DNA from: Candidatus Aminicenantia bacterium
GTDB lineage: Bacteria > Acidobacteriota > Aminicenantia > Aminicenantales > Saccharicenantaceae
NCBI GenBank assembly: GCA_041479905.1
Contig: JBGOYY010000007.1
Location: 5,162-69,161 of the forward strand
Reading direction: 5' to 3'
Length of the DNA: 64,000 bases
The notes under the pieces are model-generated. The model was not told the DNA's origin and searched no databases. It was given only the letters and a program-made list of their open reading frames with translations. This document shows positions 5,430-64,000 of the stretch, piece by piece; within the stretch, counting starts at the first letter, position 1, and every line of letters starts with the position of its first letter. The translations under genes were made by a program, and so were the position numbers.

Positions 5430-6236
5430 CTAGCGCCTGGGCTTGCCATAGACGTGGTCGCCGATGCGGCGCATCCGAGCGAGCTCGTCTTCGCTCATGG
5501 GCCCGGCATCGAGGACGGCCAGGTTCTCGCGCATCTGCTCGGCCGTCTTCGGCCCCGACATACACACGTCGACCGCGGGGTGGGAGAGAACGAAGCGATA
5601 GCAGTCGGCGGCCGTCGGCGGCTTTTCGCCCGGCGGCATCTTCTTCGGGTTGAGGAGCTTCCCCCATCGAGTGGCGGTGAAGACCACGGTTCCGGGCCGT
5701 TTTTCCCCGCTCATAAATGGAAAAATGTCCGTCTCCGCGCCGCTGTGGGCGGCGTTGTAGCGGAGGTGAAGAACGTCGAACTCCCCGTCCCGCCCCAGCT
5801 CCCCGAGGAACTTCCGGTTGTGGCCGGAGAGACCGATGAAGCGGACGAGCCCCTTCTCTTTCATCCGCAGGGCCCCGTCGATGAGGCGCCGCGTCGGACG
5901 GCGGGAGAAGTAGCCCAGGATGAGGACATCGGCGTGGTCCAGCCCGGCGCTTTCGAGGCCCCGCACAAGTAGCCGTTCGGTGAGGAAATTGTTGTGGGCG
6001 TAGGTGAACATGGCCAGGACCAGCCGGTCCCGCTGTCCCTTGGCGACAATATTCTTCAGCGCCTGGCGCATGTGCGGCGCAAAACCCTTGATGACCGTGC
6101 CCCAGGTGAAATAGTTACAGCCCCGTTCGAAGGCCTCTTCGATGGCCGCCGTGGGCACCCCGTACCCCGAGGCGACGCCCAGGCGTCCGACCTTGAGACC
6201 TGTCCGGCCCAAAACGGCGGGTTCATGAAAGTTCAT
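5430..6236 (-). CDS. aldo/keto reductase family oxidoreductase
   Basis: 268-aa product starting MNFHEPAVLGRTGLKVGRLGVASGYG, with FIGLSGHN later. The track ORF extended to 6734 is an Arg/Pro-rich over-extension. The ATG at 6234-6236 overlaps the upstream gene's stop (ATGA). Confidence 0.8.
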   Translation of the reverse strand: MNFHEPAVLGRTGLKVGRLGVASGYGVPTAAIEEAFERGCNYFTWGTVIKGFAPHMRQALKNIVAKGQRDRLVLAMFTYAHNNFLTERLLVRGLESAGLDHADVLILGYFSRRPTRRLIDGALRMKEKGLVRFIGLSGHNRKFLGELGRDGEFDVLHLRYNAAHSGAETDIFPFMSGEKRPGTVVFTATRWGKLLNPKKMPPGEKPPTAADCYRFVLSHPAVDVCMSGPKTAEQMRENLAVLDAGPMSEDELARMRRIGDHVYGKPRR

Positions 6237-6958
6237 GGTTCTGGCGCTCCTTTGGGTTCGATCCGGACTTCGCCGGGCCGGGACTCGAGGTCGTCCAGCC
6301 ATTCCTCCATGGCCCGGAGGTGGAGGGCGATCGCTTCGTCGATCTCCGCCGGCACCGCCAATCCCTTCGCGGCGCAGTATTCGGCGAGCGATGCGTCGAT
6401 GTCCTGCCAGGAGGATAAGGGCGCGCGGTCCGGCTCTTGGCCTGATCCCGCGGATCCACTGACCGCAGCGGCGTCGACCTTGCCCACGACGTCGAGCCGT
6501 TCGAGAATTCCCACCATGCGCCGGTAGAGTTCGCCGTAGCGGCGCGACCAGCCCAGGTAGGGCGCGACGCCCTGCGACCCCAGGAAGGTCTCGACCGTCC
6601 CGTCGCGCCCCACGACAGCCTCGCAATCGGGTTGGGCGGGAAAGACGGCGAATCGCTCTTCTCCCCGCTCGTTGGTCGTCCTGCCCAGGGGATAAAGACG
6701 GCAGACCAGGGGCCGGCGGGGATGGACCCGGCACCCGGACGGCGTCAAGAAAACACAGCGGCCGTCCTCCTCGGAGCGGAGCGTCGTCCCCCCGTTATCG
6801 CCATAGAGGGAGAGGAACTCGGTTGTGCCTATCCCAAGGACGCGCGCCATCCCCAGGACCTCGTGGGGGCCGGCCATAATGACCTTGCCCGAGCAGCAAC
6901 GGCCGCACACACGGCAGGCAAACGAAAAGGGGGCTTCGCGGTCGAGGCAAAAATCCAA
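6233..6958 (-). CDS. YkgJ-type cysteine-cluster (CxxCxxCC) protein
   Basis: N-terminal CRVCGRCC motif plus later Cys residues (CVFLTPSGCRVHPRRPLVCRLYP). Translationally coupled to the aldo/keto reductase gene. Confidence 0.65.
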   Translation of the reverse strand: MDFCLDREAPFSFACRVCGRCCSGKVIMAGPHEVLGMARVLGIGTTEFLSLYGDNGGTTLRSEEDGRCVFLTPSGCRVHPRRPLVCRLYPLGRTTNERGEERFAVFPAQPDCEAVVGRDGTVETFLGSQGVAPYLGWSRRYGELYRRMVGILERLDVVGKVDAAAVSGSAGSGQEPDRAPLSSWQDIDASLAEYCAAKGLAVPAEIDEAIALHLRAMEEWLDDLESRPGEVRIEPKGAPEP

Positions 6959-6968
6959 AGGCGCGGCT

Positions 6969-7307
6969 TCAGTGTTTGGCTTCGAGCGTCCCCAGGTTCT
7001 TGAACATCTGGCCGGCCCGGAACAGCTTGATCTCGACGGCCGCCGTCTCGTCGGACTGGAGGTGCTTCAGGACCTTCGCGGGGAACGGCGCGGAGTACAG
7101 CAGCTCGCTGCCCTTGTACCACTTGATCTCGGCCTGCTGCCACCTGGCCTGGAGATGCTTGTCCTGCTGGATATGCTTGTCCTGGACGACCCCGCCGGTC
7201 TGGCTCCCGTGAAGAAAGCCGAAGGATGTGCAGAAGGCCGCGGCTGTCCCGGCGAGCTTGAGGACGTCCCGCCGGGTGACGGTTTTCCGATCTTCTTCTT
7301 TTCCCAT
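6969..7307 (-). CDS. small Tat-signal protein of unknown function
   Basis: Twin-arginine motif TRRDVLKLAGTAAAF. First gene of the 7307-5430 minus-strand operon, 10 nt from the next gene. Confidence 0.5.
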   Translation of the reverse strand: MGKEEDRKTVTRRDVLKLAGTAAAFCTSFGFLHGSQTGGVVQDKHIQQDKHLQARWQQAEIKWYKGSELLYSAPFPAKVLKHLQSDETAAVEIKLFRAGQMFKNLGTLEAKH

Positions 7308-9039: not shown

Positions 9040-10353
9040 CTAGCGGTTTCTCGCCGGCTCGGCGGTCCACTCCGAGCCGTTCCAATAGCGGATGCCCTTG
9101 AGCAGGGCGTCCCCATAGACCTCGTCGAGAACGCTGGCGATCCTCCCGGCCTTGACCATTTCCTCGTGGCTAACTATGTAGCCATGGCCCCAACTGACCT
9201 GGACGCACTTGAGGTCGAAGCCGAACTCGTAATACAGGCCTGTAATGCCCGTGACCCGGATCCAATTGTTCTCGGTGATGCCGATATACCTGAGCCCGTC
9301 GACATGGTTGCCCATGGCCTCGGAGACATCGGTATAGGGCACGGTCGCGTAATAGAGTTCCGAGCCCGGCCCGAGGCCCTCGCAGGCGAATTCCCCGGTC
9401 TGGGGGGAGCTCCCGCTGATCTTGTCGGTGTCGAAAACGATCAGACATCCGCCGCGGTATTCGTTGGTGACGCCACAGACGATGAGCTCCTCCCGGCCGT
9501 CGCCGTTGATGTCGTGATACGTGAGGTCTCTCAAGTAGCCGGCGTTCCAGAACTCCCCGACCATCTTGCCGGAGGAATCCAGCACGGCCAGCTGGCACGG
9601 CCAATCGGGCGCCTGGAACGATTCGACGACGGTCTCCAACCGGCCGTCGCCGTCGAGGTCGTGGACATGAAAGCCGGCGATGCGGTAGTCCGGAGAAAAG
9701 ACCTTCCCTCCGCACACGAGCTCCTTCCCGGCGTGGAAGCTCCAAAGCTCTACGCCCTTGCGGTCATAGCAGTATATGAAACCCTCCCCCGTCTGGTCGC
9801 GGACCCTCTTCGGGGCGAAGAGGACCTCCGTGTCGCCGTCGCCGTTGATGTCCCGGATGACGAGGGAGGGGAGCATGTTCGCCTCGTCCTTGTGTATCAC
9901 CTGGAAGTTCCTGCGATAGAAGTCCTCCAGCAGGAGGTCTTCCATCTTGGTGTCCTTCCGCCAGAGCCCCCGCTTGTCCTTGTCGCGGACGATGAGCGTG
10001 GACCCGTCGATCGAGAAATCGGCGGGCTGGCGCCGGACCCGGCTCGCCTTGACGATGAAGAACGCCCCGGCTAGAAGCACGACGGCCGCTGCGCCCGCGG
10101 CCCAGATCAGGTAGCGCCGGCCGAGCTTGGCCTTCACCCTCGCGGAGCGCGAATTCTTGAACGTGTGCTGGAACCAGCGGTCGAGCTCGTCCTTGTAGGC
10201 GAAGACGTGCGACTTCGCCTCTCCCCCCTCGGCCCGGTGGACGGGCATGCCGTGCTGCTTCTCCCAGCGGTAGCAGGTCCGGACGTCACACCCAAGATAG
10301 GCGGCGATGTCCTTCCAGGAGCGGAGAAGGTTGTCCTTCGATATCTCGAGCAT
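9040..10353 (-). CDS. membrane-tethered protein: N-terminal HTH, one TM helix, extracytoplasmic FG-GAP/VCBS-like repeats
   Basis: N-terminal excisionase/MerR-like HTH (SWKDIAAYLGCDVRTCYRWEKQHGMPVHR). TM helix (YLIWAAGAAAVVLLAGAFFIV). Three Ca-binding-like repeats (DINGDGDTEV, DLDGDGRLET, DINGDGREEL). Confidence 0.6.
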   Translation of the reverse strand: MLEISKDNLLRSWKDIAAYLGCDVRTCYRWEKQHGMPVHRAEGGEAKSHVFAYKDELDRWFQHTFKNSRSARVKAKLGRRYLIWAAGAAAVVLLAGAFFIVKASRVRRQPADFSIDGSTLIVRDKDKRGLWRKDTKMEDLLLEDFYRRNFQVIHKDEANMLPSLVIRDINGDGDTEVLFAPKRVRDQTGEGFIYCYDRKGVELWSFHAGKELVCGGKVFSPDYRIAGFHVHDLDGDGRLETVVESFQAPDWPCQLAVLDSSGKMVGEFWNAGYLRDLTYHDINGDGREELIVCGVTNEYRGGCLIVFDTDKISGSSPQTGEFACEGLGPGSELYYATVPYTDVSEAMGNHVDGLRYIGITENNWIRVTGITGLYYEFGFDLKCVQVSWGHGYIVSHEEMVKAGRIASVLDEVYGDALLKGIRYWNGSEWTAEPARNR

Positions 10354-10748
10354 GGCTTCACCGGGAATTTCTTATTATATGAAATTGCCCCAATCATTCA
10401 AGGCGAGGCCAGCGCGGCGCCGGCCATCCCTCCCCCGTTTTAAGCGAATATTATCGGGGACACCGGCAAGCCGTTCCCGCCCCCTAGCCGCCCCACCCTG
10501 AGGCTTGTAGAAAAGCCGGGGAACGGCCTGGGAGTCGAGCCTACAAGGCTCACCAACAGGGAGAAGACGCCGCTGCGGCCAAAGAGAATAGCGGGGATGG
10601 CGATGGGGTCGATGTTGGTTCGGGGTTTGGGAAGACAGGGATGTTCACGCATTTTTCCTGATTGACCAGAGCCACGCGTCCTTGCTGGGAGAGTAACGAG
10701 GAGAGTCCCCGGGAGGCCAACGAGAGCGAGGGCCGGGGGTCAAACCTA

Positions 10749-10779
10749 CCTGGTTCTCTTCCATCTTGTGTGGGTTGAC
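10749..10779. repeat. left terminal inverted repeat of the ISL3 element
   Basis: CCTGGTTCTCTTCCATCTTGTGTGGGTTGAC matches the reverse complement of 12049-12079 at 25/31 positions (hand count). The core TGGTTCTCTTCCAT (14 nt) is perfect. Confidence 0.75.
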
Positions 10780-10848
10780 GTGATTTAAAAAGGCCTGGCG
10801 GCCGTGATAAGATTCGAGGCGTACCCCACTTTGAAAGGATACGCCTTG

Positions 10849-12063
10849 ATGGACGAACTCGGTTTGTTTACTCTGGCCCTCGGACTTTCCAAACCCTGGC
10901 AGGTCGTTGATCTCAAGTTCTCCAAGGAGGACGGTCGGCTCGACCTCTGGCTCGACTTCGTCAAGGGATCCAAGTTCCCCTGTTCCTGCGGGAAAACCGC
11001 TGAAGCGGACGTCCACGACACCCTGGAGCGGACTTGGCGGCATCTCAACTTCTTTCAGTACGAGACGTATCTCCATGCCCGAGTGCCACGGATCCAGTGC
11101 GGCTCCTGTGGGGTGAAGCAAGTTGAAGTGCCGTGGGCCCGGCCCGGCAGCGGATTTACGCTGCTGTTCGAGCTTCTGGCCCTGTCGCTGAGCCGGGAGA
11201 TGTCGGTGGCCGCGGTCGCGGAGATGACGGCGGTGCATGCCAATCGGCTGTGGCGGATCCTGGACCATTATGTCGAACGGGCCCGCCGGTCGGTCGACCT
11301 GAACGGCTTCCATCAACTGGGAATCGACGAGTTCTCGCTCTGCAAGGGTCACGTCTACATGACCTCGTTCGCGAATCTCGAAGCCTCTCGAATCGTTTTC
11401 CTGGGGGAAGGGCGGAAAAGGGGCGTGATCGAGACCTTTACCCAAGATCTCGAGTCGCGGGGTGTTGATCCGGACCAGATCGAGGTCATCTGCTGCGATA
11501 TGTGGGATCCTTATCTGAGCGGGATCGGGAAGTTCTTGAAGAAGGCCCGGGTCGTTTTCGACCGCTTCCACGTCATGAATCAGCTCAACAAGGCGATCGA
11601 ACGGGTCCGTTGGGAGGAGCACCGGGAGGACAAGGCTCTGACGAGGAGCCGGTTCCTGTGGTTGAAGAACCCGAAGAACCTGACGGCCGAACAGGAAGCC
11701 CGGCTTCAGGCGCTGAAGAGGTCGGACCTGCGGACGGCGCGGGCTTATCAGATCAAGCCGGCGTTGGCGCGCTTTTGGGAGATCGCCGATCCGGCGGAAG
11801 CAATATCCTACCTGAAACGCTGGTACTTTTGGGCGACGCACAGCCGGCTTCAGCCCGTGATCCACGCGGCCCGGACGATCAAAAACTATTGGCAGGGTGT
11901 CGTCAACTTCCTCGACGCCCGGGTGATGAACGGGATGGGGGAAGGCTTGAACTCAAAGATCAAGACGGCTATGAAGCGAGCCTACGGGTTCAAACAAGTC
12001 GGTTATCTCCGGACCATCATTTATCTCGTCACCGGACGATTAACCTTCGGCTACCCACAGTAA
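10849..12063 (+). CDS. ISL3-family transposase
   Basis: N-terminal zinc-finger region (CSCGK...RVPRIQCGSCG) and a DDE region (GIDEFSLCKGHVYMTSFANLE, DMWDPY, NGMGEGLNSKIK). ATG at 10849 preferred over the track's GTG at 10804. The 406-aa antisense ORF is a shadow ORF. Confidence 0.85.
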   Translation: MDELGLFTLALGLSKPWQVVDLKFSKEDGRLDLWLDFVKGSKFPCSCGKTAEADVHDTLERTWRHLNFFQYETYLHARVPRIQCGSCGVKQVEVPWARPGSGFTLLFELLALSLSREMSVAAVAEMTAVHANRLWRILDHYVERARRSVDLNGFHQLGIDEFSLCKGHVYMTSFANLEASRIVFLGEGRKRGVIETFTQDLESRGVDPDQIEVICCDMWDPYLSGIGKFLKKARVVFDRFHVMNQLNKAIERVRWEEHREDKALTRSRFLWLKNPKNLTAEQEARLQALKRSDLRTARAYQIKPALARFWEIADPAEAISYLKRWYFWATHSRLQPVIHAARTIKNYWQGVVNFLDARVMNGMGEGLNSKIKTAMKRAYGFKQVGYLRTIIYLVTGRLTFGYPQ

Positions 12064-12079
12064 ATGGAAGAGAACCAAG
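12049..12079. repeat. right terminal inverted repeat of the ISL3 element
   Basis: GGCTACCCACAGTAAATGGAAGAGAACCAAG is the reverse-complement partner of 10749-10779. It overlaps the transposase stop codon. Confidence 0.75.
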
Positions 12080-12245
12080 TAAATATTATCGGTTTCTTAG
12101 GTTATTGTCGCAAGATTGCTAAACACCACTATCCACTCATGCAAAAAAGGAGTATAAAAAATTCAACAATGAGAAATATTGAGCTCTATTTCCATCTATA
12201 TTATTACAATAGTTAATCAAGCTACAGCTTACGGCGTATTTTCCA

Positions 12246-12791
12246 ATGGATTCAATCAATAGTAAAGAGAAAGAATTCAAAGATATTATAGATAATTTCG
12301 CACAATTTATCAGAATCCAAGTCCATAAATATAATCTCTATAGATATGGCCTGGATCCGGAAGACATTATGCAAGATGTTAAGATTAGGATTTGGAAACT
12401 CATCCGTGATGAGAAAATCATCTCCAATTACGCGTCCTATATTAAGAAGATTGTGAATTCTTCCGTTATCGATCAACTCCGCAAATACCGCCGTGAAGAA
12501 GATCTTTTCAAACACGAAAAGCGAATGCGTATCTCAGAAATGGAACTGGTCTATAGTAAAGAAGCTATCCGTAAGAAATATTTAGAAGAAATTGTTGGCA
12601 AGGCCGTAGAAATGCTAATTGATTCAAGACGTCAGGTAATAAAACTCTATCTATTAAACTTAAGCATTCAAGAGATAGCTGGCTATTTAAATTGGAGTCA
12701 AGACAAAACGAGGAATCTACTTTATCGGGGCCTGGCTGATTTGAAAGATCTTCTAATAGACAAGGACGCTAAGCATGAAGACAGAATATGA
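12246..12791 (+). CDS. ECF-type sigma-70 family RNA polymerase sigma factor
   Basis: Region 2 (DPEDIMQDVKIRIWK) and region 4 HTH (LSIQEIAGYLNWSQDKTRNLLYRGLADLK). About 180 aa. Lies in the AT-rich island. Confidence 0.75.
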   Translation: MDSINSKEKEFKDIIDNFAQFIRIQVHKYNLYRYGLDPEDIMQDVKIRIWKLIRDEKIISNYASYIKKIVNSSVIDQLRKYRREEDLFKHEKRMRISEMELVYSKEAIRKKYLEEIVGKAVEMLIDSRRQVIKLYLLNLSIQEIAGYLNWSQDKTRNLLYRGLADLKDLLIDKDAKHEDRI

Positions 12792-13476
12792 TGACCTAAA
12801 GAAGCTTTATCAAGGATACATCACTTCGAAGATCCCGGGCAATCGGAATAAATGCCCTTCTCCCATGGCCTTATTTACTTCCTTCAAGTCTTCAACATCC
12901 CTTCGAAACAAGAAGAAGATTATTGGTCATATAACGGATTGTTCATTTTGCAGAGAAGAGTTTGATCTGTTGCTAGAGCTTCAAAGATATCAGGCTTCCT
13001 CAATTACAGTAACTAACGAGACTTCTTCAACGGCCTCTTCAGCTGATAAGCTGGAGGCCGGAAACATCGGTAGACGCCTTATCTGGAGATATGCTTACTT
13101 TCTTTTTGGTCTCGCGCTTATTATTTCCGCTTATTATCTAATCGTACAAAAAAACGATCTTGCAGAGGTCAAGCGCGCGAGTGAACTAGGAATCTTATTA
13201 ATTTCCCCTATGCATGTGCATACTCTCCCGAAACCCTTGCTGTTTCAGTGGCAAGATCAATCTGCTTCTCAGTATTATATTCTTGAACTTTTTGATAATT
13301 CTCTACTCCCAGTTTGGACTAGCCAGAAAATACTTGATGTGCAAATTCAGCTTCCTGATGAGGTATTATCGCGCCTTCATTCTGGCAACTACTATTTCTG
13401 GATGATCACGGCCTTTTCCAGCATCCAGAAAATATCGGAATCCGAACTAATGTGCTTCTTGGTTCTTAATAAATAA
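12775..13476 (+). CDS. putative zinc-binding (ZAS-type) anti-sigma factor with one TM helix
   Basis: Overlaps the sigma gene by 17 nt. H-x3-C-x2-C motif HITDCSFC (nt 12928-12951). TM helix (WRYAYFLFGLALIISAYYLIV), then a ~100-aa C-terminal domain. Confidence 0.6.
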   Translation: MKTEYDDLKKLYQGYITSKIPGNRNKCPSPMALFTSFKSSTSLRNKKKIIGHITDCSFCREEFDLLLELQRYQASSITVTNETSSTASSADKLEAGNIGRRLIWRYAYFLFGLALIISAYYLIVQKNDLAEVKRASELGILLISPMHVHTLPKPLLFQWQDQSASQYYILELFDNSLLPVWTSQKILDVQIQLPDEVLSRLHSGNYYFWMITAFSSIQKISESELMCFLVLNK

Positions 13477-13490
13477 AAAGTCTCTTCCCC

Positions 13491-16370
13491 TCACCTACTC
13501 ATGCTGACTACAGCCGGATCACCATTCAGAATAAAGCCAGCCCAATAAAACGGATGCGACCAGGCAGAATTAAGCATCCTAATTTTTGTTAATTGGAGGG
13601 CTTTCCCAGAAGCGTACCCTTCGACAATATTTCGATAAAATTCCTTCATAAAGAAAACGGTTGTTTTGTCATTGATAGACCATAGAGAAGCAATCACAGA
13701 ACGCGCTCCCGCATAGAAAAATGGCCGCGCCAGCCCCATCGGTCCTTCTGCTCTTTCCAATATCCCATTGCCTGTCTGACAGGCAGACAATACGACTAGA
13801 TCAGCATCCATAGTAAGGCCATATATTTCTCTCATCTGAAGGTATCCATCATCCTCTTGTTGGGCATTTAAGGACAGAACTAACGCGGATCGAAGAGGAA
13901 TTCTCTCATCTAATAATCCATGGCAAGCAAAATGAATAAGCCGATACTCAATTAGAGGAAGCTTCTTTATGGCCTCTTCGCTGGCTTTTTCTCCGACCAG
14001 AATAGTTCTATCGCTTTTAGCGAAGAGCTTTCCAATCTCTAATACTTCCCTTTTGCTGAATGGAAGCGAGGAAAACCTGAATCCCGGATAATTATACAAC
14101 TGGCTAAGTACATCTTTCTTTGTTATCTCATGTTCACTTGTCGGGGGGATTCCATAATTAGGTCCGCCTACGGCTAATAGCGCCCTTTGCCTCACGTTGC
14201 TTTTCTTTTGCTGTTTTAGAACAAATAAGGATGATGCTGATGGACAATAAGAAATTACTAACTTTTCAACCAAATAACCAGAACCGTGGCCAATACTCGC
14301 TTTTAACGTCTCAAATGGAAGATAGTAGAGAATTCCGTCCGGTATGACAATTAGGGCCTTAGCAGCCTCTAGTAATCCTCCTTTCTCAAGAGGGATCAGT
14401 TCGTTGCCAATTCTTTTTGCTGCCTCAACCCCAACCCTTTTGTCGTTAGAACGAAACGATAATAATTTTATATAGGCCCGGAGGGTTTTTTCTAAGTCAT
14501 CCCTCCCTGCCAAAAAGTATAATTTCGCAGTTTTTCGAGTAATAATAATTAGGTAAGATTCTTTCTCTTCAATAAAATACTCCAATACTACGGTTTGGTC
14601 ATCGATGATTTGATTTTGTATTTGTGAGATACTGTAAACTTCCTTAGTAATTTTTAGGCCCTTATTGCGCGCTTCAGTTTTCGTTTCGGAGACGAGGCAG
14701 ATGTATTTTTCTTCTTCGCTTTCCAATTCAATATTAATTTGCTTTTTTGACTCGGCAGACAGGTCATAGCTTATCAATTTTCCATATAACAAAGATATGT
14801 TCTTAGAGATTTTCTGCTGCCGTTCATTGAAACTAGTATTAGTTCCCTTATTGCCATCTTCCCATGTTTCTCTAATGTTCTCTAAAAAAGCGCGCGCCTT
14901 GGCTCTCTCTATGAAATTGAATATTTCTTCGAGGGACGCCATGTGCGGATTAGCAGAATGTAGGCTAACCAGGATTTTTATAATTCTCTGATAAGCATGC
15001 ATTTTATTGCGCGCAAACCCTATCTTAAAGAATTCAGATGGAATTCGATCCCCAACATTCTCCATTGCTTCAATAGATCTCTTGTAAAATGAGATAGAAG
15101 AAGAATATTCTCCTTTTATCTCGTAGCATTGGCCAAGACCCAAGCACGATTCCATCAAGATGTTTTCAAGCGAATGCTCGGATCCTATCTCAAGTGCTTT
15201 GCTGTAATATTCAATTGCATCATCAATTTTATTTTCATAAACAAAAGATGTGGCAATATTATTAATAATCTGGCATTTTTCACTCAGATAATTGCCTTTT
15301 TCGACAATCTTCATGGCCGAAGAAAAATTGCCCCTAGCATTTGGATAATCTTTCAATTCGCTCTGAATAATCCCGATATTATTGAGTGCCGTAATTTTAA
15401 TAAGCGAGTTTGTTTCCTCTATTCCACGTAATGAGAGGCAGCTACGGAACACGTCCAGTGCTTGGAGCAGGTCATGCGTATTTTGACCATCAATGCCCTT
15501 GCGCAAGTAAACGGAGCCGATATTATCCATATCTTTTGAAATTGAATCAATATCACCAACTTTTTTATCAAGTTCCAAAGCGCTTGATAAATACTGTTGC
15601 GCTTTTGTTAGGTTCCCTAGGTCTCGATATAGAATCCCGATATTACTCAAGCATTCAGCCTCTGTCGGCTGATCACCCATTGCTTTAATAAAGGATAATG
15701 CATTTCCATAATAAATAAATGCGAGTGAATAATCATTTTGTTTTTGGTAGTAAACTCCGATATTATTTAATAATCTGCCTTTTTCTATTTTGTGATTAAT
15801 CCTATTAGAAATCTCCAGTCCCTTTTTATTGCTCTCCAGAAAAAGATTGAGCCTGCCCATCTGCCAATAGGTTTCTCCCATTTGACGCAAGCATTTAAGC
15901 TCAAAATCTGGGAATCCCGTCTCTCTTCCCAAGAAAATCGCTTGTTCAAATTTCTCCAGAGAAAGGTAATTCGCGTTTGTATCTCGAGTTGCCTTGCCCT
16001 GATTATAAAGTTGGATTATCTTGAGGCATTTTAAGCAATATTCTTCAGCTCGTCGATCATTGGCATTCATAAAGGCAGTTCGCGCTTCATTGAAATATTC
16101 GAATGATTCGGCGATATGGCCGAGATTCCATTTATTAATAGCCAGTCGAAGAAGGCATTTACTTTGACCATAAGAAAAATTGAGTTGGCGAGATATTGAG
16201 AGGGCTTTTAATAAGGCCACGGAAGCTTGTTCGAACTCTCCCTGAGAACCGAAGGAAACCGCGCTTTGAAATGACCGTTGAAACAATAAATAATTCTGCT
16301 TGGATCCCGCCACCCGATATTCAGTTTGAAACAGGAGAAACCATAACGAAAAGACAATTGATAAACTCAA
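13491..16370 (-). CDS. TPR-repeat / CHAT-domain (caspase-like) protease, 959 aa
   Basis: Long N-terminal TPR-like region (repeated A..Y...G.Y..A...Y..AL patterns). C-terminal CHAT domain with the dyad intact: FACHG (His codon 13920-13922) and LSACQTG (Cys codon 13779-13781). TTG start with GGAGGG RBS. Hydrophobic N-terminus (SLSIVFSLWFLLF). Confidence 0.8.
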   Translation of the reverse strand: MSLSIVFSLWFLLFQTEYRVAGSKQNYLLFQRSFQSAVSFGSQGEFEQASVALLKALSISRQLNFSYGQSKCLLRLAINKWNLGHIAESFEYFNEARTAFMNANDRRAEEYCLKCLKIIQLYNQGKATRDTNANYLSLEKFEQAIFLGRETGFPDFELKCLRQMGETYWQMGRLNLFLESNKKGLEISNRINHKIEKGRLLNNIGVYYQKQNDYSLAFIYYGNALSFIKAMGDQPTEAECLSNIGILYRDLGNLTKAQQYLSSALELDKKVGDIDSISKDMDNIGSVYLRKGIDGQNTHDLLQALDVFRSCLSLRGIEETNSLIKITALNNIGIIQSELKDYPNARGNFSSAMKIVEKGNYLSEKCQIINNIATSFVYENKIDDAIEYYSKALEIGSEHSLENILMESCLGLGQCYEIKGEYSSSISFYKRSIEAMENVGDRIPSEFFKIGFARNKMHAYQRIIKILVSLHSANPHMASLEEIFNFIERAKARAFLENIRETWEDGNKGTNTSFNERQQKISKNISLLYGKLISYDLSAESKKQINIELESEEEKYICLVSETKTEARNKGLKITKEVYSISQIQNQIIDDQTVVLEYFIEEKESYLIIITRKTAKLYFLAGRDDLEKTLRAYIKLLSFRSNDKRVGVEAAKRIGNELIPLEKGGLLEAAKALIVIPDGILYYLPFETLKASIGHGSGYLVEKLVISYCPSASSLFVLKQQKKSNVRQRALLAVGGPNYGIPPTSEHEITKKDVLSQLYNYPGFRFSSLPFSKREVLEIGKLFAKSDRTILVGEKASEEAIKKLPLIEYRLIHFACHGLLDERIPLRSALVLSLNAQQEDDGYLQMREIYGLTMDADLVVLSACQTGNGILERAEGPMGLARPFFYAGARSVIASLWSINDKTTVFFMKEFYRNIVEGYASGKALQLTKIRMLNSAWSHPFYWAGFILNGDPAVVSMSR

Positions 16371-16561
16371 ATCTTTTATCCCTCCTCGACCCGAGGAATC
16401 TGACCGCCTTTAATTTAATTATATGCGGCCACTGAAATGGAGTCAACAATGGATCCCGGGGCTTGCATGCACGATGTTAGAACCATCGCCTTGTCCCCCT
16501 TCCATTGCCTTTTCCCCCTCCCCCCTTTATACTTCTCCCATCCCAATCCCCAGGAGGCAGC

Positions 16562-17794
16562 ATGGCAAAAGACGACATTATGACCCTTACAGGAGAAAAG
16601 GACGCTTGTCCGTCGGATAAATTCTCACGCCGGAAGTTCTTCGCCTCCGCGGCCATGGTCGCGGCCGGGGCGGCCCTGGCCCCGCGCCTGATCCCCCAGG
16701 AAAAGGTCCAGGAGGAGAAGCCCACGCCTCCCCCGCCGGCGGAGATCAAGACCAATATCGACGAGGTCCGCAAGATCCCCAGGGTCGAGGGCTCGCTTCC
16801 CGGGAAATACCCCGGGAAGGTGGTCAGGGTCAAGACCGGGGCCAATCCCGTCGGGCAGAAGATCGACGGGGCCCGGGTGCGGAAGGAAATGAGCGCCGGC
16901 ATGGCCGAGCTCACCGGGGAAAAGAACCTGGGCAAGGCCTGGGGGAAGTTCGTCGGGCCGAAGGACGTCGTCGGCATCAAGGTCAACCCCATCGGGGAGG
17001 CCATCCTCTCGACCAAGCCCGAGGTCGTGGACGCCATTATCGAGGGGCTCCTCGCCGCGGGCGTCCTGAAGGCGAACATCGTCATCTGGGACAGGCGGCT
17101 CTTCGAGCTCGAGGCGGCCGGGTTCACGGCCGCACGCTTCCCCGGGGTCCGCATCCTGGGCACGGAGTTGAAAGGCCCCAACGGGGAATTCTACGACGAC
17201 AAGGGCGAGCTCTGGGCCAAGGACAACATCGACCGCGAGGCCCTGCCCTACGTCGCCGACGTCGAGCAGAAGTACGACAAGGAGACCCTGGGCTACATGA
17301 TCAACGAGGGCAAGAGCTCCTATTTCACGAAGATCGTCACGGGGACGGTGACCAAGATCGTCAACGTCCCCATCCTCAAGAACGCCGGGGCGACCGCCAC
17401 CTGCTGTCTCAAGAACCTGTCCTACGGCTCGCTCAGCAACACCGGGCGCCTGCATAAGCTCTGGATGAAGTCGGTGGCCGAGCCGTGCGCCTTCCCGGTC
17501 CTGCGGGACAAGGTCGTCCTCAACATCGTCGACGGGCTCCAGGCCTGCTACGACGGCGGCCCCGGGGCTAACCCCAAGTTCATCTACGACGCGTCGGTCC
17601 TCCTCTTCGGGACGGACCCGGTGGCCGTGGACGCCGTGGCCCATGACATCATCGTCAAGGAGCGGATGGCCCGGGGGACCCAGCAGGTCGACGCCCGCGC
17701 CAAGAGCGCCGCCTTCCTGGACATCGCCGAGGGACTGGGGCTGGGTGTGGCGGCGTGGGAGAAGATCAAGATTTCGGACGTGAAGCTGGGGTGA
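16562..17794 (+). CDS. Tat-signal DUF362-like protein
   Basis: AGGAGG RBS before the ATG at 16562. Twin-arginine signal SRRKFFASAAMVAAGAALAP. VGIKVNP and LKNLSYGS blocks resemble DUF362. The family call is from memory only. Confidence 0.55.
   Translation: MAKDDIMTLTGEKDACPSDKFSRRKFFASAAMVAAGAALAPRLIPQEKVQEEKPTPPPPAEIKTNIDEVRKIPRVEGSLPGKYPGKVVRVKTGANPVGQKIDGARVRKEMSAGMAELTGEKNLGKAWGKFVGPKDVVGIKVNPIGEAILSTKPEVVDAIIEGLLAAGVLKANIVIWDRRLFELEAAGFTAARFPGVRILGTELKGPNGEFYDDKGELWAKDNIDREALPYVADVEQKYDKETLGYMINEGKSSYFTKIVTGTVTKIVNVPILKNAGATATCCLKNLSYGSLSNTGRLHKLWMKSVAEPCAFPVLRDKVVLNIVDGLQACYDGGPGANPKFIYDASVLLFGTDPVAVDAVAHDIIVKERMARGTQQVDARAKSAAFLDIAEGLGLGVAAWEKIKISDVKLG
17711..17748. repeat. 38-nt direct repeat, copy 1 (inside the 3' end of the DUF362-like gene)
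   Basis: GCCTTCCTGGACATCGCCGAGGGACTGGGGCTGGGTGT. It recurs at 19039-19076 with one mismatch. Confidence 0.85.
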
Positions 17795-17868
17795 GGACAC
17801 GGCAAGCGGGGTGAAGCCTCGCCGTGCAGACGAGGCTGATGTCATGTCCTCGATCCGGATGGAACCTA

Positions 17869-18948
17869 ATGGAATTGAAAGATTACGGATGGGACGCAGA
17901 GACGGCTGCGCAATTCGAGGCTTGCGCCGGCCCCGGGCTCGTTCCGGGCCGGGTTGTCAGGCAGTCCCGCGACCGCTCGACGCTCGTCACTCCGCTCGGC
18001 GAATTGGCCGGCGAAGTCTCGGGCCGGTTCCGGCATGGGGCGGCGGGCTCCGCCGACTATCCGGTCGTCGGAGATTGGGTGGTAGTCGAGCCGTTCGGCG
18101 GGGGCCCGGCTCTCATCCATTCCCTCCTGCCGCGCCGGAGCTCGTTTGTGCGCAAGGTCGCCGGTGAGGCCGTCAAGGCTCAAGTCGCGGCGGCCAATGT
18201 GGACACCGTTTTTCTTGTCAGCGGGCTCGACGGCGATTTCAACCTCCGCCGCATCGAGCGGTACCTGACGACGGCCTGGGCCGGCGGGGCCGCGCCGGTC
18301 ATCGTGCTCAACAAGGCCGATCTCCGCACGGACATAGGCGCCGTCATCGCCGAAGTGAGAGCGATAGCGCCCGGCGTGCCGATCGTGGCCGTCAGCGCTC
18401 TCGCCGAGGCCGGACTGGAAAGCCTTGAACCCTACCTTGTCCCGGGGAAAACGGTGGCTCTTCTCGGCTCCTCGGGGGTCGGTAAGTCGACGCTGATCAA
18501 CCGCCTGCTCGGCGAGGAGCGTTTTCCCACGGCCCCGATGAGCGATCCCGCGGCGGGCCGCGGCCGGCACACGACGACGGCCCGAGAACTGGTCCGGCTT
18601 CCCGGGGGGGCCCTGTTGATCGATTCGCCCGGAATGCGCGAATTGCAGCTCTGGGCCGAGGAAGAAAGCCTGGACAGGGCTTTCACGGATATCGAGAGGC
18701 TCGCGGCAGGCTGCCGGTTCGTCGATTGCCGCCATGAGAACGAACCCGGCTGCGCCGTGCGGGCCGCGGCCGGGGACGGCCGGCTCGACGTCCGGCGGCT
18801 GGAAAGCTACCTGAAGCTTCGCCGCGAGGTGCGGTTCATGGAATTGAAAAAGGATGAAAAGGCGCGCAAGCAACAGGAGAAGGCGGCGGGAAAACGGTTC
18901 GCGGCCCGCCTCAAGGAAGTGATAAGAAATAAGCCCCGATATCAGTGA
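17869..18948 (+). CDS. rsgA: ribosome small-subunit-dependent GTPase A
   Basis: Circularly permuted GTPase motifs (VLNKADL, GSSGVGKSTLINRL, DSPG), RGRHTTT, and the C-terminal zinc knuckle CRFVDCRHENEPGCAV. Start set at MELKDYGW; 17824 is also possible. Confidence 0.9.
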   Translation: MELKDYGWDAETAAQFEACAGPGLVPGRVVRQSRDRSTLVTPLGELAGEVSGRFRHGAAGSADYPVVGDWVVVEPFGGGPALIHSLLPRRSSFVRKVAGEAVKAQVAAANVDTVFLVSGLDGDFNLRRIERYLTTAWAGGAAPVIVLNKADLRTDIGAVIAEVRAIAPGVPIVAVSALAEAGLESLEPYLVPGKTVALLGSSGVGKSTLINRLLGEERFPTAPMSDPAAGRGRHTTTARELVRLPGGALLIDSPGMRELQLWAEEESLDRAFTDIERLAAGCRFVDCRHENEPGCAVRAAAGDGRLDVRRLESYLKLRREVRFMELKKDEKARKQQEKAAGKRFAARLKEVIRNKPRYQ

Positions 18949-61405: not shown

Positions 61406-64000
61406 ATGGCGAACACCTGTTCCCGCTGTCGAGCGGACAATCCTGAGACGCAGCGTTTCTGCGGCGAATGCGGCACCCCGCTCCCTTCAGGAAATCAGGT
61501 ACAGGGGTCGGATGCTCCGAGAGCCGGCGGCATTCCCCGGAGCTCCATGACGGAAACCCTCCGGACACCCATCCATGAGCTGGCGACAGGCTCGACATTC
61601 GCCGGGCGCTACCAGGTCATCGAGGAGCTTGGCCACGGGGGGATGGGGAAGGTCTATAAGGTCTTCGACACCGACATCAAGGAGAAGATCGCCCTCAAGC
61701 TCCTGCGTCCAGAGATCGCACTGGACAAGGAGACCGTCGAGAGATTCTCGAACGAGCTCAAGCTGGCCCGGAAGATCAGCCACCGGAATGTCTGCCGGAT
61801 GTTCGACTTGGGCAAGGCCGAGGGTACGACCTTCATCACCATGGAGTTCGTGCCGGGCGAGGACCTGAAAAAGCTCATCCGGAAGACAGGCCAGCTCGGG
61901 GCGGGCCGGGTCGTATCGATCGCCAAGCAGGTCTGCGAGGGGCTGGCCGAGGCTCATCATCTCGGGGTCGTCCACCGCGACCTGAAACCCCAGAACATCA
62001 TGGTCGATGAGGATGGGAATGCCCGGATCATGGATTTTGGGATCGCCCGACCGCTTCGGGGGAAAGGGATCACGGGCCCCGGGGTGATGATCGGGACGCC
62101 GGAGTACATGTCGCCGGAGCAGGTCGAGGGCAAAGATATCGACGAGCGTTCCGACGTCTACTCGCTCGGGGTCGTGCTCTTCGAGATGGTGACGGCTCGG
62201 GTGCCGTTCGAGGGGGATACGCCGTTCACGATCGGCGTGAAGCACAAGAGCGAGAAGCCGCGGAATCCGCGCGAGCTCAATGCCCATGTGCCCGAGGATC
62301 TGAGCCGGGTGATATTGCGGTGCCTGGAGAAGGACAAGGAACGGCGATATCAGACGGCCGAGGAATTGCGTGCCGAATTGGAGAAGGTTGAGCAGGGCCT
62401 TCCGACGACCGAGCGCATCGTTGCTCAAAAGAAGTCTTTCACGTCTCGTGAAATCACGGTTAAATTCAATTTAAAAAAACTCGCCATGCCCTTATTAGCC
62501 GTCACGGTGCTTGCCGCCTCAGCCGTCATTCTCTGGAAATTCATTCCTCACAAAAGAGTGCCCGCCGGGTCCAGAATCGAAAACTCGATCGCCGTGATCA
62601 GCTTTAAAAACCAGACCGGCGACCCAGCTTATGACTATTTGCAGGAGGCCATCCCCAACCTCCTGATCACAAACCTGGAAAACACCGGGTTGTTTTACGT
62701 CGCCACTTGGGAGCGGATGCAGGACATCCTCAAACAGATGGGCGCCAAGCAAGCACGGCTGATCGACAGCGACCTCGGGTTCGAGCTCTGCCGGCGGGAA
62801 GGGATTAAAGCGATCGCCATCGGCAGCTTCACCAAGGCCGGGAACGTCTTCCGCACGGATGTCAAGGTCCTCGATGTCGATACCAAGGGACTCTTGAAAA
62901 GCGCCAACATCAAGGGGACGGGTGTCGACAGCATTCTCGATACCCAGATCGATTCTCTCAGCAGAGAGATGTCTCTCGGCCTGGGAATAGAGAAAGGCAA
63001 AGTCGAGGCGGTCCGCCTGAATATTAAGGAGATCACCACCGTATCGCTCCAGGCCTACGACTTTTTTCTCAAGGGAAAAGAGGCCTATAACCTGCTCTAT
63101 TGGGAGGATGCGAAGAAGAATATGGGAAAGGCCCTGGAGATCGACCCGACCTTCGCCATGGCCTACGTGTACCTGGCCTGGGCGAACCAGAACACGGGTG
63201 ACGTTAAAGCCAGAAATGAGACGATCGAGAAAGCGATGGCTCTTTCGAATAAAACATCCCAAAAGGACAGGCTTTATCTTGAAGCCGGCTATGCCTTATT
63301 CATCAAGCAGGATCCTGAAAAGCATTACACGCTCCTGAAAGAGTTGGTCCAGAAATATCCCAATGAGAAATGGGCCTTTCATTATTTGGGCGACGCCCTC
63401 TATATTTATCGAAATGATATTCCCGGGGCATACGATCAGTTTAAAAAATGGTTGGAGCTCGATCCGCAGGATGCCAACGCGATCAATCATCTGATCTCTG
63501 CAAGCTCCGGGATGCGCGAGTTCAAGAAAGCGGCGGATTACATCAAAATGCACGATGCCGTCGCTCCTCCCGATTCGTATAATCTGCATCTCCAGGCATT
63601 AATGTATCGGAAGATGGGACAACTTGATATTGCTATCGCTAAAAATATGGAGGCTCTCGAGATTAAGCCTGATTTCATATTCTCCATCGATCACCTCTGC
63701 AAACTCTATGCCCTGAAAGAAGAATACGAAAAGTCCTTGAAGTGGGCTAACGAATATGTCTCCAAAGCTTCCTCGGCAGGGAAGAAAGCCTCGGCCTATA
63801 GGGGGAGGGGTTTTTATCGCTACTGGCTGGGTACTTTCGAAGATGCGCTGGGTGATTTCTCCCTAGCGGAAAAGATGGCAGAAGAAGTCGAGAATTGGGA
63901 CACAAAAATGGAAGCCGCGAAGTGGAAGGGTATCGCTTATGTAATGAAAGGCGATTTCGAGCTCAGCCGGAAGTGCTTCGATAACGACGTTGGGATCGCC
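61406..64000 (+). CDS. Ser/Thr protein kinase: zinc ribbon, kinase, TM, periplasmic domain, TPR region (paralog 3; 3' end outside the window)
   Basis: Absent from the ORF track because no stop is reached. Hand translation: MANTCSRCRADNPETQRFCGECG, GHGGMGKVYK, HRDLKPQN, DFGIA, GTPEYMSPE. TM helix LAMPLLAVTVLAASAVILW, then ENSIAVISFKNQTGDP and TPR repeats. In frame to nt 64000. Confidence 0.9.
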   Translation, partial: MANTCSRCRADNPETQRFCGECGTPLPSGNQVQGSDAPRAGGIPRSSMTETLRTPIHELATGSTFAGRYQVIEELGHGGMGKVYKVFDTDIKEKIALKLLRPEIALDKETVERFSNELKLARKISHRNVCRMFDLGKAEGTTFITMEFVPGEDLKKLIRKTGQLGAGRVVSIAKQVCEGLAEAHHLGVVHRDLKPQNIMVDEDGNARIMDFGIARPLRGKGITGPGVMIGTPEYMSPEQVEGKDIDERSDVYSLGVVLFEMVTARVPFEGDTPFTIGVKHKSEKPRNPRELNAHVPEDLSRVILRCLEKDKERRYQTAEELRAELEKVEQGLPTTERIVAQKKSFTSREITVKFNLKKLAMPLLAVTVLAASAVILWKFIPHKRVPAGSRIENSIAVISFKNQTGDPAYDYLQEAIPNLLITNLENTGLFYVATWERMQDILKQMGAKQARLIDSDLGFELCRREGIKAIAIGSFTKAGNVFRTDVKVLDVDTKGLLKSANIKGTGVDSILDTQIDSLSREMSLGLGIEKGKVEAVRLNIKEITTVSLQAYDFFLKGKEAYNLLYWEDAKKNMGKALEIDPTFAMAYVYLAWANQNTGDVKARNETIEKAMALSNKTSQKDRLYLEAGYALFIKQDPEKHYTLLKELVQKYPNEKWAFHYLGDALYIYRNDIPGAYDQFKKWLELDPQDANAINHLISASSGMREFKKAADYIKMHDAVAPPDSYNLHLQALMYRKMGQLDIAIAKNMEALEIKPDFIFSIDHLCKLYALKEEYEKSLKWANEYVSKASSAGKKASAYRGRGFYRYWLGTFEDALGDFSLAEKMAEEVENWDTKMEAAKWKGIAYVMKGDFELSRKCFDNDVGIA

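Follow-up and report, generated by a model that had tools for sequence, protein, structure and literature searches.

In classical anti-sigma factor proteolysis, DegS and RseP act on the RseA-sigmaE pair and PrsW and RasP on the RsiW-sigmaW pair; for the site-1 step these systems use either a PDZ serine protease or a membrane metalloprotease, the genes for which lie elsewhere in the genome. In this work we analyzed a 64-kb stretch of DNA from a Candidatus Aminicenantia bacterium (contig JBGOYY010000007.1), hereafter the window, and within it a module of three genes that encode a sigma factor of the extracytoplasmic function (ECF) type, an anti-sigma factor of 233 amino acids, and a tetratricopeptide repeat (TPR)-CHAT protease that is predicted to be exported. 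The module resembles the classical systems in that its anti-sigma factor is single-pass and has both a cytoplasmic, presumably sigma-binding, domain and an outer domain, in that an outer site-1 protease is expected, and in that the ECF operon is probably autoregulated; in contrast, the candidate for the site-1 enzyme is here a cysteine protease of the caspase-like kind that has a long TPR sensor and whose gene lies beside that of the presumed substrate. Our preferred reading, to which we give a probability of about 0.5, is that these genes constitute an envelope-signalling module in which the exported TPR-CHAT protease cuts the anti-sigma factor and thereby frees the ECF sigma factor.

The closest known system is DdvA/DdvS of Myxococcus. 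The periplasmic TPR-CHAT region of DdvA faces the linker to its transmembrane helix, and it has been proposed that DdvA acts as its own site-1 protease before cleavage by RseP (PMC11506125). DdvA-like proteins were reported by the same authors only in Myxococcota and in one Comamonas. Both systems include an ECF sigma factor co-transcribed, in the module presumably, with a single-pass anti-sigma factor whose cytoplasmic domain is of the C...HxxxCxxC type, and in both a TPR-CHAT region with a His/Cys pair is placed on the periplasmic side, in our case by prediction. However, in DdvA the anti-sigma factor and the TPR-CHAT region are fused, whereas in every locus that we examined they are encoded by two convergent genes. 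Each of the two units in the module has its own promoter, and an FN3-like outer domain belongs to the anti-sigma factor itself, unlike the DdvA arrangement. The relationship in sequence is remote, given that the profile of the CHAT domain reached DdvA with an E-value of 6e-4 and that of the anti-sigma factor retrieved nothing from the Protein Data Bank (PDB). Because the fusion that defines the DdvA family is absent, we do not include the module in it; the module may be seen, in effect, as a 'split' version of the fused DdvA.

CHAT domains have been associated with ECF sigma factors in two other contexts. For ECF54 of the Actinobacteria, CHAT-domain proteins were noted in the genomic context and proteolytic control was proposed (PMC8999054; PMC7826278). 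As in the module, the sigma factor is conserved beside a CHAT-domain protein, but ECF54 has been described without an anti-sigma factor and only from Actinobacteria, whereas the sigma gene of the window overlaps an anti-sigma gene. In Craspase (Cas7-11/gRAMP, Csx29, Csx30, Csx31 and CASP-sigma/RpoE; PMC10028731) a TPR-CHAT protein is likewise tied to an ECF-type sigma factor and an inhibitor, with the same logic of relief by a protease. In contrast to the module, Craspase is cytoplasmic and is activated through the RNA-guided Cas7-11; the protease of the module has a signal peptide, and no cas gene or repeat array was recognized nearby. Besides, Csx30 shows no likeness, by profile (PDB including 8EEY) or by fold, to the membrane protein of the zinc anti-sigma (ZAS) type present in the module. 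Since the Csx29 score, the association with cas genes, a Csx30-like substrate and a cytoplasmic location all fail, the module is not a Craspase. Genes of CBASS (cyclic oligonucleotide-based anti-phage signalling system) or CRISPR type were not recognized beside it either. In the literature searched, the combination of a CHAT domain with an anti-sigma factor appeared only in the DdvA and Craspase papers, and no description of the split arrangement or of the 233-residue anti-sigma family was found, in a search of incomplete coverage.

The three genes very probably form one functional unit. One genome per species was scanned by means of the anti-sigma factor, which yielded 41 loci (designated with an L and a number), and in about 38 of these species-level genomes the sigma gene is upstream and a convergent TPR-CHAT gene downstream of the anti-sigma gene. 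When distant CHAT homologues served as the starting point, the trio was again recovered in three of three cases; the linkage between CHAT and sigma/anti-sigma genes suggested in a preliminary description of this DNA is thus recovered from both starting points. The overlap between the sigma and anti-sigma genes is typically 17 nucleotides across loci, and the stop codons of the convergent genes are separated by 14 nucleotides in the window (13477-13490) and by -74 to +23 nucleotides, usually less than 25, across the class. No terminator was found in this gap, where there is no room for one, and mutual antisense read-through between an inducible and a constitutive unit is a possibility at the junction. 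The ratio of nonsynonymous to synonymous divergence (dN/dS) indicates purifying selection on all three genes (0.15-0.38, a range similar to that of the flanking genes); for the sigma gene against close relatives it is 0.15-0.19, and for the protease gene 0.20-0.23. Nearly all loci with an informative label are assigned to 'Candidatus Aminicenantes'. A few of the 41 have archaeal or Clostridia-type labels, and module contigs were seen in bins labelled Euryarchaeota, Methanotrichaceae and Promethearchaeota (L011, CAIYYO010000178.1; L013, JALHSR010000023.1; L041, JAEOSD010000186.1). As the synteny of the former is that of the window, their labels are most likely due to binning or are placeholder names; for the latter, among which L011 shows synteny of the Aminicenantes type, contamination of the bins is probable.

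The sigma factor matches the Pfam domains Sigma70_r2 (29.2 bits, cut-off 24) and Sigma70_r4_2 (29.3 bits, cut-off 25.7), as well as the NCBIfam model TIGR02937, sigma70-ECF (46.4, cut-off 42.9), and its sole sequence match in PDB is SigW; on its domains, this 181-residue protein can be classed as an ECF (group 4) sigma-70 factor. In more than 20 distinct loci the sigma gene is preceded, at a fixed distance, by the motif TGAGAA-N17-CATCTAT, which has a single copy in the window against 0.09 expected by chance. Its spacing and sequence are unlike those of a sigma-70 promoter; the simplest reading is that this motif is probably the ECF factor's own, autoregulated promoter. A second conserved site was found neither in the window nor in 683 kb of related loci, and so no member of a regulon was identified.

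The anti-sigma factor belongs to a family that has not been named: its 52 close relatives in a large protein collection are all of about 233 residues and all unnamed, and a profile search against 1.8 billion representatives gave 211 clusters at E <= 1e-30. Scans with Pfam, NCBIfam (E <= 0.01) and PADLOC, including the zf-HC2 and other anti-sigma models, assigned it to no family, and among PDB sequences its family profile had no match at E <= 10. Four residues, C27, H52, C56 and C59, show no variation among 16 sequences that diverge down to 36% identity. They show the classical spacing of zinc anti-sigma factors and occur together with a helical domain, as is characteristic of the ZAS factors, and binding of zinc can be predicted from them. 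An AlphaFold2 (AF2) model obtained with 16 sequences, with a mean predicted local distance difference test (pLDDT) of 71, consists of helices at residues 6-75 (pLDDT 64-78), a disordered segment (76-97), a long helix (98-136) with a low-confidence linker at 127-137, and a beta-sandwich (140-233, pLDDT 83-92). With Foldseek, the sandwich matched exclusively FN3 domains, and the top matches were titin, Eph and integrin (E-values of 8.5e-5 to 1e-3, TM-score to the target 0.55-0.70). The residues on the N-terminal side of the transmembrane helix are rich in Arg and Trp, and by the positive-inside rule we infer an N-in topology. In the outer juxtamembrane linker Arg134, whose context in the clade of the window is E-V-K-R, is, speculatively, a candidate position for site-1 cleavage.

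In the protease, the CHAT model of Pfam aligned over 289 of its 289 positions (E-value 1.9e-63), and the repeats matched TPR_12 (2.4e-34) and many other TPR families. Across 32 homologues that diverge down to 40% identity the catalytic residues H817 and C864 do not vary, and a CHAT domain with its His and Cys placed after helical repeats fits the separase/CHAT clan. The AF2 model (pLDDT 81, predicted TM-score 0.75) shows a long superhelix of TPR units that leads into a CHAT domain of alpha/beta type; its top matches in Foldseek were DdvA (8RW5, E-value 3e-15; also 8ROT), Csx29 in several Craspase structures (about 2e-14, TM-score to the target 0.49-0.58, 12-14% identity in the structural alignment) and separase. 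When the full-length protein was compared with PDB the result was swamped by TPR proteins, and the CHAT domain alone was used instead. With its profile, Csx29 was reached at an E-value of 2e-5, next to the value for DdvA given above, and DdvA was the best single-sequence match in PDB of the CHAT domain of the window. From the profile and fold results together, the protease forms a branch of its own within the CHAT clan, at about the same distance from Csx29 and from DdvA. It scored 36.1 bits with the NCBIfam model of Csx29 (NF041237), whose cut-off is 300, and because PADLOC gave only weak matches of TPR/CHAT type it was not assigned to any known defence system.

A hydrophobic N-terminal signal sequence of the Sec type is present family-wide in the homologues of the protease, for instance MRKGNVLALFVLSLCVTTS... 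and MKRGKAYLAIVLVLSVSICLKAEG..., and the N-terminus of the window protein is MSLSIVFSLWFLLFQTEYRVAG/S; the signal peptide predicts a place outside the cytoplasm. Upstream of its gene, the element TTGAC(T/A)-N17-TATAAT is kept in at least 10 other loci, and the TGAGAA-N17-CATCTAT motif does not occur there. Given this conserved promoter of the sigma-70 type, the protease is probably constitutive and the sigma operon inducible. The two types of promoter place the protease upstream of sigma activation, and this counts against the protease as an output of the sigma factor.

The preliminary description had been made by reading the sequence alone, and its account of the genes holds in detail: the number and arrangement of the three genes, the overlap and the gap between them, and the motifs HITDCSFC, FACHG and LSACQTG were all as reported, and the classes that it gave to the sigma factor and the TPR-CHAT protein agree with the models of Pfam and, for the sigma factor, of NCBIfam. 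Its comparison of the latter with Csx29 was also sound, in the sense that a fold of the separase/Csx29/DdvA type is shared and the catalytic pair is intact. For the anti-sigma factor, the zinc signature gained an invariant fourth ligand candidate, and the transmembrane helix and outer domain already described agree with the AF2 model; a match with zf-HC2 or another family model was not obtained.

The mechanism that we propose would proceed as follows. The sigma and anti-sigma factors would be co-translated, the cytoplasmic zinc-motif domain would hold the sigma factor, and the FN3-like domain would face the periplasm. The TPR-CHAT cysteine protease, exported by Sec and made from a housekeeping-type promoter, would be present before any signal. 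A periplasmic signal, sensed by the TPR array or by a complex of TPR and FN3-like domains, would activate the CHAT protease, which would then cut the outer juxtamembrane linker of the anti-sigma factor, possibly at the invariant Arg134 (site-1). This cut would license intramembrane site-2 cleavage and cytoplasmic degradation, and the freed sigma factor would activate its own promoter together with a further regulon. What the analysis shows are the identities of the genes, their folds and conserved motifs, the linkage, the synteny, the conservation of the promoters and the purifying selection; that the protease is exported, that the anti-sigma factor binds the sigma factor and is cut by the protease, that the sigma operon is autoregulated, and what the signal is are all inferred. 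On the predicted models, a role of the protease as a site-1-like enzyme for the anti-sigma factor is topologically possible; that the cleavage is direct has, in our estimation, close to an even chance, or slightly under. The distances between anti-sigma outer domains co-vary with those of the TPR region (r 0.85, and 0.62 as a partial correlation once sigma is removed), while their correlation with sigma distances falls to 0.10 once TPR is removed; both results are confounded by shared phylogeny and similar evolutionary rates, and we take them as a weak supporting sign of a tie between the protease and the outer domain.

Several points weigh against our preferred reading. The confounding just mentioned is one of them. 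The signal sequence of the window protease (MSLSIVFSLWFLLFQ...) has no positively charged n-region, and it could be a signal anchor or be weaker than those of its relatives. Within 8 kb of the module, none of the loci yielded a member of the regulon. The self-cleavage of DdvA has itself been proposed and not demonstrated, and its signal is unknown (PMC11506125). Finally, at many loci of Aminicenantes a second TPR-CHAT paralogue, also exported, lies next to a small secreted protein, and CHAT proteases of this family may in consequence have substrates besides the anti-sigma factor.

This last point leads to the strongest alternative, possible but appreciably less probable than anti-sigma cleavage, in which the trio is also one signalling unit but the substrates of the protease are other periplasmic proteins whose products are sensed by the FN3-like domain, or in which the TPR region shields or presents the anti-sigma factor in the manner of RseB and the site-1 cut is left to another protease. 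It accounts for the same linkage and topology, TPR arrays are generic protein-binding modules, and the position of the second paralogue beside a secreted protein of about 100 residues suggests that secreted peptides are substrates in the family. Nevertheless, the invariance of the pair H817/C864 shows that proteolysis matters, the anti-sigma factor is the only exported partner invariably adjacent to the protease, and the clade of the window keeps the trio even though it has neither the second paralogue nor the small secreted protein.

A different and rather improbable explanation is that the TPR-CHAT gene belongs to the sigma regulon, or is a conserved neighbor with no mechanistic tie to the pair. 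Genes beside ECF sigma factors are often their targets, and regulators and targets are inseparable by genomic context alone (Casas-Pastor et al., PMC7826278). Such a role fits poorly with the sigma-70 type of the protease promoter, which lacks TGAGAA-N17-CATCTAT, and with an adjacency that outlasts divergence at the level of the class and the change of both outer flanks. The suggestion of the preliminary description, a horizontally acquired, CRISPR-less counterpart of the Craspase output in which a Csx29-like protease cuts a Csx30-like ECF regulator in the cytoplasm, can draw on the atypical composition, the adjacent ECF sigma factor and the likeness to Csx29 in fold and CHAT profile, but we hold it to be highly improbable, as the trio occupies the same site class-wide with no tRNA, integrase or flanking repeat found, the protease has a signal peptide, falls far below the Csx29 cut-off and is about as close to DdvA, and the 233-residue protein is a membrane protein without likeness to Csx30.

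The trio is an old, vertically inherited and lineage-wide unit of the Aminicenantes (Acidobacteriota), and the horizontal acquisition that the preliminary description had proposed is not supported except as an event that predates the sampled lineage. Relatives whose anti-sigma factor is 78%, 74%, 44% and 38% identical to that of the window have the same arrangement of the trio between the same flanking genes, NDK and a helix-turn-helix (HTH)/FG-GAP gene on the left, and DUF362 and RsgA on the right. The divergence of module and flanks runs in parallel: against L001, L003 and L005/L006, respectively, identity is 86%, 82% and 61% for FG-GAP, 93%, 94% and 84% for DUF362, 89%, 85% and 62% for the sigma factor, and 82%, 79% and 53% for the CHAT protein. 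All sampled relatives of high G+C have the trio at this one site, and in the CHAT tree the high-GC genomes are monophyletic. No integrase, tRNA target or convincing flanking direct repeats were found at the module. From this synteny, the class-wide presence and the monophyly of the high-GC clade, recent horizontal transfer was rejected. Among the features by which genomic islands are recognized, atypical composition was found, and patchy presence, a different location or marks of mobility were not.

An ISL3 insertion sequence (IS) adjoins the module on its left. Alignment of the intergenic region with that of L003, which is free of IS, showed that the G+C junction pre-exists and that ISL3 sits exactly on it. 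As a vehicle of an island the element was rejected, since the junction is present in L003 without it; ISL3 is a later, secondary insertion. The region just to the left of the sigma promoter is a hot spot for insertions, with an unrelated IS of the DDE_Tnp_1 type at the same intergenic spot in L001 (about 5729-7294) and in L011 (upstream of 5223).

The module is nonetheless sharply set off by its base composition, and the AT-rich stretch with sharp edges described earlier was confirmed by a windowed analysis. Between 12082 and 16440 the G+C content is 0.390, against 0.620 in the remainder of the window; on the left the fall, from 0.56-0.62 to 0.31-0.43, takes place between about 12050 and 12200, and on the right the value climbs back at about 16400-16550. 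Windows of 1 kb inside this interval have a mean G+C 6.4 standard deviations under the mean of those outside, and its tetranucleotide distance to the remainder is 0.774, whereas other 4.4-kb pieces give 0.160 +/- 0.033, with a maximum of 0.272. The interval contains exactly three open reading frames (ORFs), those of the trio. The only other part of the window with a clearly lowered G+C is 63001-64000 (0.486, the lowest value outside the interval). Scans of the window for tRNAs and with Rfam gave zero matches. That no CRISPR is present in the 64 kb, as had been stated, is borne out for repeat arrays, none of which was found in the window; as for cas/gRAMP genes, none was recognized near the module or among the conserved neighbors of 40-odd loci, the ORFs of the window not having been scanned systematically for cas genes.

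The low G+C of the module persists across the class. In every genome examined the G+C of the module is equal to or lower than that of its flanks: 0.38-0.40 versus 0.59-0.69 in the clade of the window and L008, 0.43 versus about 0.70 in L004-L006, 0.46-0.49 versus about 0.65 in L025, L026 and L035, and 0.53-0.60 versus 0.59-0.68 in L014-L022 and L049. At third codon positions (GC3) it is 0.37-0.41 in the module of the window and 0.79-0.92 in the flanking host genes, and across the low-GC modules (window, L001, L003, L005, L008, L011) 0.33-0.46 against 0.78-0.96. First and second codon positions and the amino-acid composition are also shifted, and codons that are rare in the host make up 12-17% of the module and 1-3% of its neighbors. 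When the genes at 12246-16370 were compared with those at 9040-10353 and 16562-18948 against the close relatives L001 and L003, synonymous divergence was 0.31-0.61 in the module and 0.10-0.27 in the flanks, for the most part a difference of two to four times. The anti-sigma factor is only 38-45% identical between the clade of the window, L008 and L004-L006, and at this distance synonymous sites must be saturated; the low GC3 is in consequence being maintained, as opposed to fading from an earlier condition.

This persistence has three candidate explanations. The locus may locally escape the force that pushes these genomes towards high G+C, for instance if, evolving fast, it undergoes little homologous recombination and consequently little biased gene conversion; selection may favor rare codons or AT-rich DNA as a throttle on expression; or an ancestral low-GC state may have ameliorated unusually slowly. 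The wider proposition that the class uses a free, exported TPR-CHAT protease acting in trans as the site-1 enzyme dedicated to the neighboring anti-sigma factor, as an unfused ancestral or alternative form of DdvA, and that AT-richness and the load of rare codons are a selected property, both of them new, seems to us rather unlikely. If it were true, the selected AT-richness could throttle or gate expression, or could mark the locus for binding by nucleoid proteins.

Table 1. Features of the module and of the adjoining insertion sequence, in window coordinates
Feature	Position	Strand	Basis or remark
ISL3-family insertion sequence	10747-12081	+	adjoins the module, outside it; transposase domains by Pfam
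ISL3 terminal inverted repeats, 34 nt	10747-10780 and 12048-12081		
ISL3 transposase	10804-12063		Pfam domains
Conserved promoter-like motif TGAGAA-N17-CATCTAT	12170-12199	+	about 49 nt 5' of the sigma start codon
ECF (group 4) sigma-70 family factor, 181 aa	12246-12791	+	Pfam and NCBIfam above cut-off
Single-pass anti-sigma factor, 233 aa	12775-13476	+	overlaps the sigma gene by 17 nt
C27, candidate fourth zinc ligand	12853-12855	+	invariant in alignment
H-x3-C-x2-C zinc anti-sigma signature, HITDCSFC	12928-12951	+	read directly in the sequence
Transmembrane helix of anti-sigma factor, about residues 104-126	13084-13152	+	hydrophobic run IWRYAYFLFGLALIISAYYLIV, within model helix 98-136
Arg134 in outer juxtamembrane linker	13174-13176	+	invariant in 16-sequence alignment; in low-confidence segment 127-137
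FN3-like outer domain, residues 140-233	13192-13473	+	AF2 model and Foldseek
TPR-CHAT caspase-like protease, 959 aa, predicted to be exported	13491-16370	-	Pfam, signal sequence, AF2 model
CHAT domain, residues about 590-959	13494-14603	-	
Catalytic pair H817 (13920-13922, FACHG) and C864 (13779-13781, LSACQTG)	13779-13922	-	
TPR superhelix, residues about 24-570	14661-16301	-	
Signal peptide of protease, residues 1 to about 23	16302-16370	-	
Ribosome-binding site of protease gene, GAGGAGGG	16380-16387	-	strong; 9 nt before the TTG start
Sigma-70 housekeeping-type promoter of protease gene, TTGACT-17-TATAAT	16418-16446	-	11/12, best in region

The surroundings of the module vary among genomes. 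In the window its left neighbor (9040-10353, minus strand) encodes a protein of 437 residues with an N-terminal HTH, a transmembrane segment and an outer FG-GAP beta-propeller, which looks like a membrane-anchored one-component regulator; between the start of this gene and the IS there are about 390 nucleotides of GC-rich non-coding DNA (10354-10746) that give a good alignment with the intergenic DNA of L003, where no IS is present, and have no match in Rfam. In 17 loci the HTH/FG-GAP gene diverges from the sigma operon; lower-GC relatives have a sigma-54 activator at the corresponding place. In these lower-GC Aminicenantes (L007, L023, L027, L030, L031, L040, L042, L047 and L053; e.g. L023:1103-5477) the locus is larger. 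It includes first the secreted protein of about 100 residues, with a signal peptide and a low-complexity tail, then the second exported TPR-CHAT paralogue of about 990 residues, in some cases a GT2 glycosyltransferase, and, divergent from the sigma operon, a sigma-54 activator of about 308 residues without a receiver domain. None of these four genes is present in the 64-kb window, and nothing convincing was found when sigma-54 promoter motifs were sought near the activator in the related loci. In several low-GC loci (L028:11857-16164; L031, L032, L040, L047) the protease gene is followed by genes for a peptidase of family S58 (DmpA-like) and an Asp/Glu racemase, to which some loci add a HAMP-SpoIIE phosphatase gene; these neighbors could hint at the metabolism of D-amino acids or cell-wall peptides, or could reflect simple local synteny.

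The sharp drop in G+C at this locus advises caution against reading such a drop as the sign of a recent horizontal transfer, and it raises for genome evolution the question of how one conserved operon stays far from the base composition of its genome. As a natural two-protein version of the DdvA design, the module would allow the site-1 proposal made for DdvA to be tested by cleavage in trans, with the protease, its substrate and a catalytic mutant. The abundance of the module, with sequence clusters in the hundreds from a class that is uncultured and little known, shows that the coupling of CHAT proteases with ECF sigma factors extends beyond defence islands and CRISPR.

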